Source: Coleofasciculus chthonoplastes F2-STO-03
Lineage (GTDB): Bacteria > Cyanobacteriota > Cyanobacteriia > Cyanobacteriales > Coleofasciculaceae
NCBI GenBank assembly: GCA_040222015.1
Contig: JAVJWO010000072.1
Coordinates: 1 to 64,000, forward strand
Direction of reading: 5' to 3'
Length of the DNA: 64,000 nucleotides
Of the stretch, positions 12,001 to 18,000 are shown in pieces. Position 1 is the first letter of the stretch, and each line of letters starts with the position of its first letter. A program made the position numbers.

Positions 12001-15000
12001 AGTCTTGATTCAATTACTCACTAAACAGATTTCACGTTTCATCAGTAATTTTTGTTCAAAAAGCTGGTATCAATTTAATTTTTTACTAAACCTTAACTTT
12101 CATTTAACTGTAGCATTGCATATTCACAACGTCTAGGGAAAAAACATATATTTTTTTTATGTTAAAATCAAGTTTATTAGGATATTCATATACTAAAAAT
12201 CGTACTTTATTGTGTAATACGTGATATGTTAATGATTTACCCAATTTGAAATAGCTTTGCGAGCGCCAAAGCTAAATAACCTAAAATGGTGGAATAGATT
12301 TTACGGTTAAATCTGGCGCACGTCAGTCATCCGTGTCAACTTAAGACACAGTAGGGGTTTGGTTACCAAACCCCTACTATACGGATGGTATAGTCTCCTC
12401 TTTCTCAAGTCGTCGCTGACTCCGATGGGGTCTAATCAGCAAACAGACACCAACCGCCCAAGCAATGGATGCCATCCAACCGGCAATAATATCACTGGGG
12501 TAGTGAACCCCTAAATACATCCGAGTCCAACCGATCGCGATCGCAAACACGATACTCCCAATCACAACCAGCCAACGCCAACGGGTATTCCACGTCAAAA
12601 TAATTAATACAATCGCAAAAGTCATGCTTCCCATCGCATGTCCACTGGGAAACGCATAATCAAATTCTGGCGCCGGGGATTCCCAAAGGTTAGGGCGCAC
12701 TCGCTGGAGAACTAATTTCGCCGTGCGATTGATAATCACACTCCCTAATAAAGTTATCAGTGCATAGGTGAGTAATCGCCACTGGCGTCGGAATGCCAAG
12801 AACAGTACTATCGCTACAGATAAGGGCAATACCCCCCAATAGGCACCGAACTTCGTCAGGGTTATCGCAAACGCATCAAGTTGAGGGGACGCTGTTGAGT
12901 GAATCGCTAATAAAATTGGCACATCCCAAGGAAAACCCCCTTCCTTTTCCCAAACCTCTTCGGCTAGTTCTCCGAAGATTTGCAGGGGGAAATAAACACC
13001 CAGAAATAAGACAACCAGAGAACGCCAATGGTGGATCAGTAATTTGCTCAGAAATTTAAAAAATGATTGAATACGCTTTGAGAGTTCATAAATAGACATT
13101 AAACCTGCGAAATGTGACTGTGTACAACTTAAAAAAAATGGCGACTTCCTCAAAAGTCTGATTATCCCACATCTGAGGACAAAGGACATAAAGAAATTAT
13201 TTATCCCTCATCCTTATACATACATTTAAAATTAGGTCAGGGCGGTTTTTGATTCAACGTTATCATCAATGGCAAAACGAAAGTCCCTAAACTAGCCCAG
13301 TGGTAGGGGCGGGTTTAGTCAAATCTGGGTCTAAAAGAAACGATAGTTGTAAAACCCGCCCCTACAACCTTCAACAATCAAAAGGCTTGTATCTCTCATC
13401 GAACAGATACATTTTCTGAAATCCACTGTAAATAAGCCTGAGATCCAGCAATAATCGGCAGGGCAATAATTTCGGGAACCTCGTAACTATGCAACTCCTG
13501 AATTTTGGCAGCTAACTGGTCAAATAGAGATAAATCTGTTTTGATCACCAATTGCCACTCTTGGTCACGATTCACCTTTCCATCCCAGGTATAAATCGAT
13601 CGCACGGGTGTAATACTGACACAAGCTGCCATCCGCCCTTCCACTAAGGATGAAGCGATCGCGTCTGCTTCTTCTTTTGACGTTGCCGTTACCAAGACTA
13701 CACCATAGCTAGAGGTTGATGTCTTTTCCATAGAACCATTCCTCTGTTCCTACGCCTGGTTCATTGTATCAATTCACCCGAAAAAAATATATAGTTACAC
13801 GAGATGATCGTGCGATCGCGGAGTATCTATATCAGAGGTAGGAATAGTACCTCGTGGATAAATCATCCTTTAGCAGGTAGCGTTAATTCCACGTTTTCTG
13901 CTATTGAAACAGGCATTCCTCGTTCCCTATTCTCTCTCACTAAGGGAATTCTCAAAAGCATTATGCTGTTGGCAAAAGCCTGTAACCTCAGAAAACGCCC
14001 AACCCGTTACCGCTACGGTTTAAGCGGCGCGAGAATGGATTCAATTGCTACAGAAGAGTTGACAGGTAGACAATTTTTACTAATTGTAGTATTGTATAAT
14101 ACAAAGTGGCATAGTCCTCACCCATGAGGGTGAACCCATTGATCTGACTCAGACTCAAGGCAACGTTAGCCAACCATTGTTTAGGGTTAGCGAAACTATT
14201 CTTAAAAGCTATTGATTCAATCAACCATGAACTCTACCCGCCTGGTTAAAATTAGCAAATATCTCAGCAAACATCTGCGGCATCAACCCGAACGGATTGG
14301 GTTAACCTTAGAACCAGGGGGTTGGGTCAACGTTAATCAACTTCTATCTGCTTGTAAACAGTATTCCTTTCCTCTTACTCTCAATGAACTTAAAGAAGTC
14401 GTCGCCAACAATGATAAACAACGCTTTTCCTTTGATGCGACAGAAACTCGGATTCGTGCCAATCAAGGACATAGTGTCGCGATTGATTTACAGTTAGAAC
14501 CAACCCTTCCACCAGAGGTACTCTACCACGGTACAGGTCACCGAACTGTGGAAGCGATTCGGCATCAAGGCTTATGTAAAATGTCACGGCATCACGTCCA
14601 CTTATCGCCGGATATCGCCACCGCCAAAAAAGTAGGACAGCGTCATGGCCGTCCGGTGGTTTTGGCTGTCGATGCTAAAGCCATGTCTGAAAAAGGTCAT
14701 ACATTCTACTGTTCCGAAAATGGGGTGTGGTTAGTGAATTTTGTTCCCCCTAAATATCTACAGCAACTCTAATCCGCCAGGAGTCTCCAACTCAGCAGGA
14801 AAAATAGTGATGAATTCAGAACAGGTTTGGTCTCAAGAAAATTCTCATCAGAATAATCGGCAAGCGAAAGGGTTATTGGGGTTAGGCTGGCGTCCTTTAT
14901 CCCGGCAGTTTGATTTGGATTTCATTTTACATTTGTTGCAAAATGACACATCAGAGTTATTGCAAAATACTCTAGATTTTACCAGTGATGTGGCTGATGC

Positions 15001-18000
15001 ATTAGGGCGAAATCACTATAATATTTTTGCCAATGTTTTGAGCTTATTTTCCGAAAATATGCGTTATGAGTGGGATGAGTTCTGGGAATACATTACCCCT
15101 GACCCGCCAGCCCCCAATCATTCTCAGGGGGAGACGATATTCGTCAATACACCCGTCACCCAAACGGTTACCCGTGAGAGTATTCCGATTGAGTATGTCC
15201 TGAATCGACTGCAAGAAGTCACTTTATTTAAAGTCTTAGATATTCTGGGCAGTCCCGATTTAATTACTCAAGATTACATGGATCGCCGCTTTTATTATCC
15301 CCTGGAAAAGTTTGCCAATTGGCAACGCTTAGACGTTTTTGGCACAGTCTATGCCTACTGGTCTAATCCCGAAATTTGGTTACAAATCAATAACCAGGGT
15401 CAAGGACGGCGCTGCTACAGTTTAATGGCGGATGAAATTCGACCTTTAGTGAATAAAGCGACCTATAATGTAGCCGTGATGCTGAGTGGCTATCAAAGTC
15501 GGGTGGGACAGGTTCACAGTCAGTTTCAGATTAGAGATTTTCCCAACGATATTCAACGGTTTACGGATACCGTTCAGCAGGCAATTCTGGATCAAAATCA
15601 GTTAGCAATTGTGGTGCATGGTGAACCGGGAACCGGGAAAACGGTATGGACACAAGCGGTGGCAAAAGAAATTCTTGTACCGTTGGGGTATACTATTTTT
15701 ATTCTGGATCATGATGCGGTAGAAAATTTTGTACCGCCGAGTTATTTGGAACGAGTTGCCCTAATTATTAACGAAGCGGATAACTTAGCCAAAAATCGAG
15801 CTAGTGAAGTGGCGCAATGGAATAATAAAACGGAGCATATTCTCAGTTTGCTGGATGGAACGTTATATCAGAGTGTGATTGATGACACCGGAATTAAAGC
15901 GCAGCAAAAATTAGTGGTATTAATGACTTGTAATACCACAGAACGCTTCGACCCGGCGATGTTACGTAAAGGACGAGTGGATTTGACCTATGAGTTTATG
16001 CATCGATTTGTGTAAGGCTGAGTAGATTTGACGATTAAATCGGGCGCACGTCGGTGCGCCCCTACCTCAACATTTCTACCCCACCCTAACCCTCCCCTTA
16101 TCAAGGGGAAGGAACCGGATAAGATTAAAGCGATGAAATTCAAAGTTTTACAGGGAAAAGTTCTCACCTTAAGTTGACACGGATGCAAACCTCGCGCCCC
16201 GACGAGGCTGATGTAACAATTGAGACATGGTACGCTACTTCAAATAATTTCATCCTAAAGGCATAAGCTAAAATTGACCTTATTTCCTAAAATGAGAGAG
16301 TCTCCGTTGTAAGAGTTATTACATTATGTAAATACCCTAGTAACGAGATAATGAATTCTATAAAAAAGTTATGTCTTTTCTAAAACGACCCCTTCTATTA
16401 CTTCCTCTGGCTTTACTGCTTGTTGTTTCAACAGGTTGTCGCGTGGAAAAAGAGCAAGCCGGGGAAGAACCGGATGTAGATGTAAACGTAGATCCTGGAC
16501 AGTTGCCCGAATATGAAGTTGAAGGACCAGAAGTTGATGTAGGAACTGAGGAAAAAGAGATTACCGTTCCTGATGTGGAGGTAACCCAAGAAGAAAAGAC
16601 GATTACCGCGCCTGATGTTGATATTCAACCTCCAACTGACAATGATTCCCAAGGAAATCAATAATAGTAACCGTTAGGGAGCTTCTTTTGGCAACTGAGA
16701 AGCTCCCTGAATAATTTAGCCTTATTGTGTCCCAGGATAACCATTAGCACCATAAGCGGCTAACTCAAATTTAGTATTTAAACTTCTTATAACGACCTGG
16801 AAAACTGGTATATAATAGTATGCCAGTTTTTGAACTGTCTATACTACCGTTGTAACTTGAACCGTTGCGACTCCAAGCTATTCAGGATGGTGTAATCAAA
16901 GCAACGAAGTGGAGATGGTGACAAAGGAAAAACTGGGCTATTGCATTTCCTATCGAGGAAAGACGTTATCAAAGATGAATGATGAAGTCTATTCCGGCTA
17001 CCTCGGTGTTCCCTGTTTCCCTAATTGCCTATGAGTTCCTCCGTAGAGAATCAGCAAACCCAACAAACCCAATCGTCACCCCTAACCCCTGCAATGATTC
17101 AACGGGTGAAAGAAGGATTGAGTGCAGCCCGCGATCGCAGAGTGCGTGATGCTGTCGAAAATGCTAGGAATAATCTGAATGCGATCGCGAATGGGGAGTC
17201 AGATCAGCGAGTCAGGGGAAGGGTAAGGCGTTTCATCCTGCGATCGTTCATTCATCTGCTGTTCCCCGTGCGAATCGAAAACCCGGAATATATCCCCACT
17301 CAACCCGCGTTACTCGCCGCCAACCATCTCAATCACATTGATCCATTACTGATTCTCGCCGAAGTCCCAGGACATCCCTACTACTACACCCCGGCTGACG
17401 CCCGTACTCTCTATAACCATTGGTGGAAACGCCGGATTTTGGGTTGGGCGGGGGGTGTCATTCCCCTAGAACGGCGCTGGAAAGAAGAAAAAGCGGTTAT
17501 TGAAGCCGCCCAATCAGGGCGTGAAGATTTAGCCGACTTAGCCGCCGCCATTGAAGAGGATGTACCAAGCAACGCCGGATTAGGTACTATGCGACAGATA
17601 GAACGGGTGGTGCAGGCAATTTTTGCCTGTGGGGATGGCGTTTTAATCTTTCCAGAGGGGAGATTGGGTGAGGTTGAAGGTGAATTACAATTGCCCTTAG
17701 CGCGAGGTGTGATTATGTATGCGTTGCGGGCTGGCGTACCGATTGTACCCGTAGCCTTGATTGGCACCCATGACCTTTATTTTCGCAAGCCATTAACCCT
17801 GCGATTTGGCGAACCCTTGCACTTTCCCCAATCCCAACGCCCCAAACCGAAGGAAGTCAAAAAGGCGATGGAAACGTTACAAGAGGCGCTGATTAAACTA
17901 TTACCTAATAACTATCAAGAACCCAACCAACCCAAGCCGCTGCGTCATTGGCTCAATTGCCTATTGTTGTAGGGTTTCACTACTATCGTTTGAAATGGTG

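Follow-up and report, generated by a model that had tools for sequence, protein, structure and literature searches.

A KptA–AAA ATPase gene pair behind a TrcR-type operator in Coleofasciculus chthonoplastes, a probable minimal form of a variable cyanobacterial RNA-repair cluster

The window, a 64,000-nt stretch of Coleofasciculus chthonoplastes F2-STO-03 DNA, carries the gene for KptA followed on the same strand by that for an AAA ATPase (Table 1). The ORF list and the translations agree on this pair, which had been reported in the first-pass annotation with a spacer of 38 nt; the measured spacer is one of 37 nt. Each gene is present in one copy in the 7.72-Mb genome. A site scan found no terminator-like site on the + strand of the spacer, and RNA-library contigs from four metatranscriptomes cover both genes and bridge it (one, of 1923 nt, corresponds to 14142-16064), which is proof neither of transcription nor of a single transcript. 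Allowing <=5 mismatches, the genome contains 13 copies of the 43-nt repeat behind the ATPase gene, which folds with -24.6 kcal/mol and gives a weak STnc320 match under the Rfam threshold; in the RNA-library contigs it is marked by many loose ends and a depth 5-10 times higher.

Table 1. Features of the kptA–ATPase locus, in window coordinates
Feature	Position	Strand	Remarks
-35-like hexamers TTGACA (14059-14064) and TAGACA (14067-14072)	14059..14072	+	Candidate promoter; sequence reading
TrcR-type operator box TGTAGTAT	14085..14092	+	Exact match to published TrcR site; 135 nt upstream of KptA ATG
-10-like TGTATAAT	14093-14100	+	Sequence reading
ATAATACA, inverted near-copy (TGTATTAT) of box	14096-14103	+	Overlaps TGTATAAT; sequence reading
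kptA/tpt1, NAD+-dependent RNA 2'-phosphotransferase	14227..14772	+	181 aa; ORF list and translation
Inter-gene spacer	14773..14809	+	37 nt
AAA ATPase gene	14810..16015	+	401 aa; ORF list and translation
ATPase N-terminal region, residues 1-250	14810..15559	+	Helical bundle (about 4-95) and alpha/beta subdomain (about 108-234)
Classical-clade AAA alpha/beta core, residues 268-401	15611..16015	+	Without lid domain
Walker A GEPGTGKT, residues 270-277	15617-15640	+	ATPase core
Walker B N321-E322	15770-15775	+	N-E in place of D-E
Sensor-1 N375		+	ATPase core
Arg fingers R386/R389	15965-15976	+	Core ends here, without lid
43-nt repeat with G+C hairpin	16023..16065	+	Possible terminator or REP-like element; just past ATPase stop codon

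KptA matches PF01885 (E 1.3e-55) and NF002014 (288 bits, cut-off 239), and its closest solved relative is PDB 7kw8 (E 6.9e-59). Its R18, H19, R66 and R121 align with Arg16, His17, Arg64 and Arg119, the essential residues of Runella Tpt1 (PMC6097658), so the catalytic tetrad is complete. In the ATPase, Pfam recognises only residues 268-396 (PF00004, E 7.6e-12). The earlier count of its homologues is borne out, with 903 proteins at E<=0.001, the best 120 of the 903 being all 401-409 aa long and 68-99% identical. A structure model using a 58-sequence alignment reaches a mean pLDDT of 82.9 and supersedes the poor first one (53). The pore-loop position is taken by F307-V308, and the two arginine fingers are present. 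The N-domain of 250 aa alone gave no structure match at E<=0.001, and Pfam and structure searches of the ATPase revealed no RNA-binding domain; classical AAA proteins work on proteins. The best Foldseek matches of the whole model are Bcs1 (E 5.6e-13) and YjoB (E 2.3e-9, the alignment spanning model residues 100-398), with low TM-scores of 0.31-0.38.

The sequence ahead of kptA contains the site footprinted for TrcR at the Anabaena trn promoter, TGTAGTAT (PMC10272220). A consensus scan of the region gives TAGACA-17-TATTGT, whilst related loci show TTGACA-N17-19-TGTAGTAT, at differing distances in different genera; in the window TTGACA stands 22 nt from TAGTAT, and the -35/-10 assignment and start site are candidates. 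The arrangement of a box and an inverted half-site recurs in loci L167 and L177, and in the published trcR auto-operator two such half-sites are paired (PMC10272220). With 133 copies of TGTAGTAT on both strands of the 7.72 Mb, 22 of them intergenic-like with an ORF behind, about 0.009 would be expected by chance in the window's intergenic region. Of 148 distinct loci, 32 have a forward box <=400 nt upstream of the first cluster gene and only 4 a reverse one, and the density upstream of clusters is 0.60 per kb against a background of 0.023 per kb per strand, about 26-fold, in counts that overstate independence since the genomes are related, and for a box of only 8 nt. The exact box is absent from the 400-nt window in 116/148 loci, many of which have one-mismatch tandem variants; such variants precede 17 of 18 methyltransferase-KptA-ATPase loci (mostly Microcoleus; a plain count). 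Amongst genomes with unlinked KptA genes, 6/15 have a box there, five of the six in one genus. As controls within the window's genome, rtcB is preceded by exact boxes in tandem, an RsgA paralogue by a box, and an RHH ORF (trcR) by a perfect copy of the 18-nt trcR auto-operator, all genes of the types published as TrcR targets.

The Anabaena gene all0263 is a likely link between this operator and the ATPase. It is described as a 1203-nt 'AAA family ATPase' gene with BCS1 as its best KEGG match; mutation of trcR derepresses it 24-fold (log2FC 4.58), and its promoter is shifted by TrcR in EMSA (PMC10272220). Nostocaceae loci of our ATPase match it in gene length and in the synteny ATPase - threonine dehydratase - sugar permease, and on these grounds, together with its annotation, all0263 is likely to be the Anabaena orthologue. 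Genes for translation and RNA repair (rtcB, rsgA, rimK, a tRNA array) form the core of the regulon, and TrcR is termed there the functional equivalent of RtcR (PMC10272220). In the available part of that source, all0263 is not among the genes named as also induced >8-fold by chloramphenicol, and a kptA entry was not found in the table.

A phylum sample of 401 cyanobacterial genomes yields 77 with the ATPase and 73 with KptA. In this sample the ATPase family hardly occurs outside Cyanobacteriales, the window's own order, with 75 of the 77 genomes in that order and two elsewhere in its class. In 25 of the 77 ATPase loci, two of these with a decayed KptA, the gene immediately upstream on the same strand is that for KptA; in a set of 80 named ATPase loci KptA is upstream in 34. 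This adjacency is far beyond chance, and the pair stands as a conserved co-oriented unit in several cyanobacterial families. Scoring same-strand neighbours in the 80 named loci gave KptA in 41, a Nudix protein in 10, an RNA ligase in 8, a 277-aa protein in 8, a ThiF-like protein in 7, an EF-Ts paralogue in 2 and NADAR in 1. The ligase is TIGR02306, of the DraRnl type (159.9 bits, cut-off 151.15). The ATPase is the constant member, or hub, of a variable same-strand cluster, an arrangement new here. The cluster sometimes includes an RNA that mimics rRNA. This RNA, previously placed at C165:56017-56266 of the same genome (G000), is confirmed there by a GAC match to bacterial LSU rRNA (47.2 bits) and by a sarcin-ricin-like AGUACGAGAGGA. 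Full copies lie upstream on the same strand in L103, L155, L176, L180 and L215, and in G294 and G080 the RNA immediately precedes a lone KptA gene; in Nostocaceae a TGTAGTAT box precedes the RNA. The earlier claim that the ATPase and/or KptA follow it on its strand therefore holds for some genomes, but as a minority arrangement (full copies at 1/77 ATPase loci and 4/80 named loci).

We consider that the pair is probably, if by no wide measure, a two-gene operon of a TrcR-controlled cyanobacterial translation-stress regulon, and a minimal form of a variable RNA-repair and ADP-ribose-processing cluster in which the lidless AAA ATPase is the constant element. During normal growth TrcR would sit on TGTAGTAT at the promoter, the box being present here and its binding expected from the Anabaena orthologue. 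When translation is damaged TrcR would fall and both genes would be made, a response that all0263 shows in the trcR mutant. KptA, with its active site intact, may then, using NAD+, clear 2'-phosphates from tRNA or rRNA that has been broken or joined again, or cap RNA 5'-phosphates, both being presumed substrates. The ATPase, as an arginine-finger ring fuelled by ATP, could, speculatively, pull a protein off a damaged translation particle, or unfold one on it, so that the RNA is repaired or recycled. Bacterial KptA has long been puzzling, and this operator context offers it a testable role in translation-damage rescue. Among the points against this reading, RtcB gives clean junctions, and a DraRnl-type ligase was not found in the genome of the window, so neither supplies an evident source of 2'-phosphate RNA.

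The first-pass annotation saw in the ATPase a dedicated partner of KptA, which in its strongest form would bind the enzyme and then load, activate or recycle it within one complex. That the two genes often lie close together in one orientation in several families, separated by short spacers, speaks for this, as do L103, where the gene order is flipped with a 3-nt overlap, and G314, where both genes are pseudogenes; moreover, 49 genomes of the sample have both genes where about 14 would be expected under independence, an excess confounded by relatedness. However, 28 of the 77 ATPase genomes show no KptA and 24 of the 73 KptA genomes no ATPase, the two are unlinked in most Nostocaceae that have both, and KptA has decayed beside an intact ATPase in L038, L064, G098 and G302. 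No fusion protein occurs among the 120 and 150 best relatives, and the ATPase is just as often preceded by an RNA ligase, by a Nudix gene or by no partner at all. A dedicated complex is thus unlikely; KptA is often added to the ATPase but is not its obligate partner, and KptA, ATPase and mimic RNA are better described as tied by one translation-stress regulon and a variable RNA-repair cluster than by a one-to-one partnership.

It is doubtful, too, that the ATPase is a quality-control chaperone of the Bcs1/YjoB type, acting on aberrant proteins and merely co-regulated with KptA, with no RNA-repair role of its own. Its classical-clade core, pore-loop residues and arginine fingers would suit such a protein; the genes behind it in its Anabaena operon encode a threonine dehydratase and a permease instead of RNA enzymes (PMC10272220), and in 84/148 loci none of the query partners lies directly upstream. 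Against this stand the repeated, independent same-strand link to RNA enzymes and the mimic RNA, in varied orders and genera, and the translation and RNA-repair content of the regulon. Bcs1 and Bacillus subtilis YjoB, whose N-domain is beta-rich, resemble it in length (about 400 aa) and in placing an N-domain before the AAA core. They have a helical lid after the core and a D-E Walker B, whereas the window's ATPase family stops at beta5 and has N-E. That the pair serves in phage defence or as a toxin-type conflict system, with KptA as an ADP-ribosyltransferase effector under ATPase control, is very unlikely. In favour of it, KptA belongs to the ADP-ribosyltransferase superfamily (weak Pfam PARP match, E 0.015), neighbours of the NADAR, Nudix and ThiF-like kinds are found repeatedly in conflict systems (PMC9503650), the ThiF-like protein scores 56 bits against an anti-phage cap2 model, far under the cut-off of 320, and PADLOC gives the ATPase weak matches to TRIP13 (E 4.1e-8) and IetA, as noted earlier. 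Those matches are, however, partial and generic to AAA proteins, and PADLOC has none for KptA, a canonical equivalog nearest to a proven 2'-phosphotransferase. The ATPase, at one copy per genome, 59-72% identity across the order and stable synteny, points to vertical descent; 2.9 million viral contigs yielded only two weak partial matches, and operator and regulon indicate translational stress.

The regulon reading has its nearest parallel in the all0263-all0262-all0261 operon of Anabaena sp. PCC 7120 (Wang et al. 2023, PMC10272220), with a Bcs1-like ATPase of 400/401 aa, a TGTAGTAT-type operator at the promoter and a regulon whose rtcB and extra rsgA, beside its tRNA array, correspond to boxed genes, with trcR, in the window's genome. 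There the threonine dehydratase and permease lie behind the ATPase, whereas in the window KptA lies ahead of it, and the available part of that account lists all0263 without protein analysis or links to KptA, RNA ligase or mimic RNA. RtcR-controlled operons (rsr, Y RNAs, rtcB, rtcA) are likewise stress-induced RNA-repair sets, in which enzymes for end processing or ligation are accompanied by a structured RNA copying a cellular one. They use a sigma-54 activator and not an RHH repressor, and their RNA imitates tRNA and not 23S rRNA sites; the cyanobacterial clusters lack the Ro protein and have the AAA ATPase as constant protein. In the fungal and plant pathway an ATP-dependent ligase leaves a 2'-phosphate junction from which Tpt1 removes the phosphate with NAD+ (PMC6097658), a functional set resembling the clusters with a DraRnl-type ligase, although no module for a cyclic phosphodiesterase or a kinase turned up next to the cluster ligases. 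The four-gene cluster of Runella slithyformis (Munir et al. 2018, PMC6097658), with HD-Pnk, a ligase-like protein and Tpt1, shares the catalytic tetrad of the window's KptA. It differs in its HD-Pnk, none of which was seen at the cyanobacterial clusters, and in its ligase, theirs being of the DraRnl type; the available part of that account mentions neither an AAA ATPase nor a TrcR operator nor a mimic RNA. The clustering of Tpt1 with a polynucleotide ligase in Runella suggests a bacterial 2'-phosphate repair route (PMC6097658).

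The first-pass annotation placed a KptA gene and a 401-aa AAA ATPase gene side by side in the window, and two co-oriented ORFs do lie there, separated by a 37-nt gap (14773-14809) and each present in one copy in the 7.72-Mb, 219-contig genome. With 95-96% protein identity to Coleofasciculus MAGs, the source is a Coleofasciculus-like cyanobacterium. KptA matches PF01885 with 188.6 bits (cut-off 26; E 1.3e-55) and the NF002014 equivalog with 288 bits (cut-off 239). In the alignment with its closest solved relative, 7kw8 (E 6.9e-59), residues R18, H19, R66 and R121 fall opposite Arg16, His17, Arg64 and Arg119 of RslTpt1, the Runella enzyme in which these four residues are reported to be essential (PMC6097658). 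The Arg-His-Arg-Arg tetrad is thus present, and it is invariant in 14 cyanobacterial orthologues. By these sequence features, KptA is predicted to be a canonical Tpt1 RNA 2'-phosphotransferase. To our knowledge, the enzymatic activity of bacterial KptA/Tpt1 is established, but neither a substrate nor a phenotype has been assigned to it.

Features of the KptA-ATPase locus in the window
Feature	Position	Strand	Description
TrcR-type box TGTAGTAT (predicted)	14085-14092	+	abuts TGTATAAT and a near-copy in inverted orientation; KptA starts 135 nt further 3'
KptA	14227-14772	+	ORF, 181 aa
AAA ATPase	14810-16015	+	ORF, 401 aa

The Pfam AAA (PF00004) match of the ATPase is confined to residues 268-396. 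When a profile of 58 relatives was aligned to VAT and Cdc48, the Walker A motif GEPGTGKT (residues 270-277) was seen to conform to GxxGxGK[ST], with K277 invariant in the 58 sequences, whereas the Walker B motif LIINEAD departs from hhhhDE, N321-E322 standing opposite the D-E of VAT and Cdc48. Asn is the majority residue here across the family, with D or Q in a few members, and the catalytic Glu is retained. Sensor-1 N375 is invariant, the arginine fingers R386 and R389 of the second region of homology are kept in at least 90% of the sequences, and these residues align with ATN...RRPGRFD. No lid domain with sensor 2 was found in the ATPase; it lacks a lid because the chain stops 5 residues past beta5. 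Its structural alignments end at residues 398-401 while the targets run on, and its relatives have the same end point or short unaligned tails. Read off the alignment, F307-V308-P309-P310 occupies what, judged by the FtsH and Cdc48 motifs, would be the position of pore loop 1 (aromatic-hydrophobic-Gly); F307, P309 and P310 are invariant in an alignment of relatives (A4). The poor structural model reported in the first-pass annotation (pLDDT 53) can be improved upon, AlphaFold2 with the 58-sequence alignment giving a pLDDT of 82.9. The N-terminal domain gave no Foldseek match at E<=0.001 and only sub-0.9, unnamed matches in the ESM Atlas. Of ten distant relatives looked up by cluster, one had a name. 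What emerges is an AAA family, present in at least 575 species-level genomes, with two unusual features: it is lidless and has an Asn-Glu Walker B. No protein fusing KptA to the ATPase occurs among the relatives listed outside the 'longer' length class.

Operator sequences provide a regulatory context for the pair. In Anabaena PCC 7120, the repressor TrcR keeps rtcB, an extra rsgA, rimK and an array of 26 tRNA genes silent and releases them when translation is inhibited; the site it footprints in the promoter of that array, TGTAGTAT, overlaps the -10 box, and the promoter of trcR itself bears ATACTACACTTGTATTAC (PMC10272220). The same source lists all0263, an 'AAA family ATPase' gene, as 23.8-fold derepressed in a trcR mutant and EMSA-positive at its promoter; all0263 is the first gene of an operon with all0262 (threonine dehydratase) and all0261 (sugar permease), and the supplement of that paper gives it a length of 1203 nt and BCS1 as the best KEGG match. 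In Nostocaceae loci (for example L186) the ATPase gene is 1203 nt long and is followed by threonine dehydratase-like and permease-like genes. Because length and synteny match, we infer, from these and not from sequence, that all0263 is the ATPase orthologue. In the literature searched, all0263 surfaces only in a table and in the promoter/EMSA sentence of the available text of PMC10272220, and the supplement of PMC8421152 has no entry for it.

In the window, a predicted TGTAGTAT-type operator sits beside a -10-like TGTATAAT, as in the TrcR regulon. The 8-mer has 133 copies in the whole genome, counting both strands, and about 0.009 copies would be expected by chance in the 495-nt spacer upstream of KptA. 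Twenty-two of the 133 are intergenic-like with an ORF behind, including the window's box and that of a second RsgA paralogue (C138:27905). Two exact TGTAGTAT boxes stand in tandem (C178:19530-19560) about 35-45 nt before the ATG of rtcB in this genome, and an exact ATACTACACTTGTATTAC, the published trcR auto-operator, lies at C211:60892-60909 before a small ORF. From its likeness to a small ORF of locus L093 and to the published description, this ORF reads as a ribbon-helix-helix protein and putative TrcR, which would then be encoded with its auto-operator. With boxes at rtcB, RsgA and the ribbon-helix-helix gene, the TrcR regulon therefore appears to be conserved in this genome. The box is not exclusive to TrcR targets, since two copies (C67:66874 and C131:23706) lie 22 nt before ORFs that resemble IS200/IS605-type TnpB in their N-terminal sequence.

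The box recurs at related loci. An exact forward copy lies within 400 nt 5' of the leading cluster gene in 32 of 148 distinct ATPase loci, a density of 0.60/kb against a background of 0.023/kb per strand and with four in reverse orientation, although these are not independent events because the genomes are kin. The boxes fall within TTGACA-N17-19-box promoters that, according to genus, precede KptA, the RNA ligase, an EF-Ts paralogue or the ATPase alone. Unlinked KptA genes have an exact box of their own in 6 of 15 cases, five of the six in one genus. In 18 loci of Microcoleus and relatives (L039-L064, L075, L191), a gene for a 234-aa class-I methyltransferase lies 5' of KptA-ATPase on the same strand, with tandem near-consensus boxes in the promoter before it; in 17 of these 18, most of which belong to Microcoleus, tandem one-mismatch copies take the place of the exact box.

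The association of the two genes was assessed in a sample of 401 genomes of the phylum. The ATPase occurs in 77 (75 of the window's order and 2 of its class), its matches there being 59-72% identical and otherwise none, and KptA in 73; both genes are present in 49 genomes, the ATPase alone in 28 and KptA alone in 24. KptA lies immediately 5' of the ATPase on the same strand at 25 of the 77 ATPase loci (decayed in two, L038 and L064), immediately 3' at one (L103) and 2-5.5 kb 3' at four, with none within 6 kb at the other 47. In the Nostocaceae-like family f5, 41 of 45 genomes have the ATPase and 18 have KptA, mostly unlinked. The two genes therefore form a genuine, conserved pair that is nonetheless facultative, and of the two the ATPase persists more often. 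In one Nostocaceae genome (L106, G314:C2:940561-943578), the ATPase gene is broken by several in-frame stops, and of KptA close by just a C-terminal fragment is left; both are pseudogenes, a possible joint loss.

A wider set of RNA-repair genes surrounds the pair in other genomes. Relatives were collected with a 9-sequence ATPase alignment (575 of 599 candidate stretches encode one), and the 7-kb flanks of 80 named loci were scanned with proteins drawn from the same loci. All partner matches are on the ATPase strand: KptA in 41 loci (34 upstream of the ATPase, 7 at 3.7-6 kb downstream), Nudix in 10, RNA ligase in 8, the familyless 277-aa protein p277 in 8, a ThiF-like protein in 7, an EF-Ts paralogue in 2 and NADAR in 1. 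The ligase, which combines PF09414 with an OB domain, is DraRnl-type (TIGR02306, 159.9 bits, cut-off 151.15). Gene order varies among genera, with RNA-KptA-ATPase-NADAR-p277-ThiF in Aphanothece (L176), ligase...KptA-Nudix-ATPase-p277-ThiF in Aerosakkonema (L208), RNA-ATPase-Nudix...KptA in Fischerella (L215), EF-Ts-ligase-ATPase-...-KptA in Tolypothrix (L072, L192) and RNA-ATPase-KptA-Nudix-p277-ThiF in L103, RNA here being the mimic RNA, which imitates the 23S rRNA sarcin-ricin loop (SRL) and GAC sites. KptA, RNA ligase, Nudix and NADAR make up an enzyme set that has been assigned on comparative grounds to NAD-dependent RNA repair (PMC9503650). The window's genome carries a minimal version of the cluster: no orthologue of the DraRnl-type ligase, Nudix or ThiF protein was found in it, and p277 is reduced to a 52-aa remnant (C171:63793-63948).

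Two of these partners have features of their own. p277 (277-279 aa) has no Pfam or NCBIfam family and nothing usable in the ESM Atlas; a 213-aa ThiF/E1-like protein accompanies it at L103:3679-5301 (minus strand), L152, L153, L155, L176, L177, L180, L206 and L208, the pair lying 3' of the ATPase, or p277 lies directly 3' of the mimic RNA. The Tolypothrix EF-Ts paralogue (200 aa; TIGR00116, 183.7 bits; L072:13204-13806, minus strand, L192, L195) heads an EF-Ts-RNA ligase-ATPase cluster with TrcR-type boxes upstream; behind the ATPase there come another AAA gene, an ordinary one, and a GNAT gene.

The pair may well be a TrcR-controlled RNA-repair module, a reading that we regard as just probable. 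Translation damage would cause derepression and production of KptA and the ATPase; KptA would then clear RNA 2'-phosphates with NAD+, its predicted activity, and the ring ATPase would remodel the damaged translation particle, the choice of ATPase substrate being purely conjectural. The strongest competing explanation is a protein-chaperone role for an ATPase that is merely co-regulated with KptA, and this we consider unlikely, though a serious contender. An obligate KptA-ATPase complex would account for the adjacent genes, but it is weakened by the phyletic pattern and is rather less likely still. A role in defence is very improbable: the pair appears to be vertically inherited and is all but absent from viral contigs, where 2 partial matches, both weak, turned up, KptA matches 0 PADLOC families, and the ATPase matches are partial (TRIP13 at residues 315-390, IetA at 238-292), with no one system matching both proteins.

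The first-pass annotation also tied the pair to the mimic RNA. The copy in the window's genome (C165:56017-56266) matches the LSU rRNA GAC with 47.2 bits (E 1.1e-12) and bears AGUACGAGAGGA, and it was the only one found by an RNA profile run over the whole genome; near-full-length copies occur in 37 of the 401 genomes. A full copy precedes the ATPase or KptA at seven loci (L103, L155, L176, L180, L215, G294, G080), and short remnants lie 126-380 nt 5' of the ATPase at nine (L036, L069, L077, L169, L173, L190, L209, L213, with very weak traces in L072). No copy or remnant was found upstream of KptA at the window's own locus; motif scans showed nothing in the 700 nt 5' of its ATPase, and Rfam at E<=1 over 12000-18000 gave just two sub-threshold, chance-level matches.

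The mimic RNA itself appears to be subject to TrcR-type control or to lie within tRNA arrays. In 6 of 30 RNA loci (L130-L134 and L136, about position 1490 in each), its 5' end comes 8-12 nt after tandem boxes (TGTAGTAT with TGTATTAT or TGTAATAT), and in most Microcoleus loci, among L111-L129, it lies directly behind a tRNA 3' end and ahead of tRNA-like sequence. At the C165 copy, the 250 nt 5' of the RNA yielded no TrcR-type box. From these counts, therefore, the link exists but is seldom one of physical adjacency; what ties the pair and the RNA together more generally is the operator they share. NADAR lies 3' of the RNA in the window's genome and in L120, L135 and L139, p277 in six Nostocaceae loci, and an RNA ligase with a tRNA-binding domain in L119 and L127. 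The window's genome has two NADAR genes, C165:56272-56766, 6 nt after the mimic RNA, and C181:4678-5124.

It is conceivable, though doubtful, that the lidless ATPase, KptA and the SRL/GAC-mimic RNA form one surveillance-and-repair system for the GTPase centre of the ribosome. Arising from TrcR-controlled promoters or from tRNA arrays, the RNA would then serve as a decoy for, or a sensor of, agents cutting or modifying the sarcin-ricin loop or L11 region; the ATPase would strip factors or proteins off damaged particles, and the DraRnl-type ligase, KptA, Nudix and NADAR would heal RNA and clear ADP-ribose by-products. If true, this would give bacterial Tpt1 its first physiological role and reveal a novel type of RNA-guided ribosome repair.

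A stress-induced RNA-repair regulon is a known kind of system; what is new is the cluster composition, the features of the ATPase family and the place of KptA in the regulon. Leaving aside Burroughs & Aravind 2016, reportedly the chief comparative treatment of RNA-repair systems and their neighbourhoods, our literature search found no description of KptA-ATPase pairing in cyanobacteria. KptA and an rRNA-mimic RNA would join the published TrcR regulon. With KptA behind a stress operator, beside a conserved, uncharacterised ATPase and clustered with ligase, Nudix and NADAR, its role can be sought under concrete conditions, namely translation-inhibiting antibiotics or trcR deletion, in a candidate pathway where ligation leaves 2'-phosphates; all0263 in Anabaena offers a tractable model gene.

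Metatranscriptome contigs from relatives (90-99% alike) cover KptA and the ATPase in four runs and bridge the 37-nt spacer in all four, one contig of 1923 nt spanning 14142-16064. Since cover extends upstream of the promoter (13900-14269), the contigs cannot place the start site or exclude DNA carry-over; they are compatible with co-transcription and prove neither transcription nor a single transcript. Right after the ATPase stop codon lies a 43-nt repeat with a G+C hairpin (16023-16065; 13 genome copies), at which the contigs show very high depth and many loose ends.
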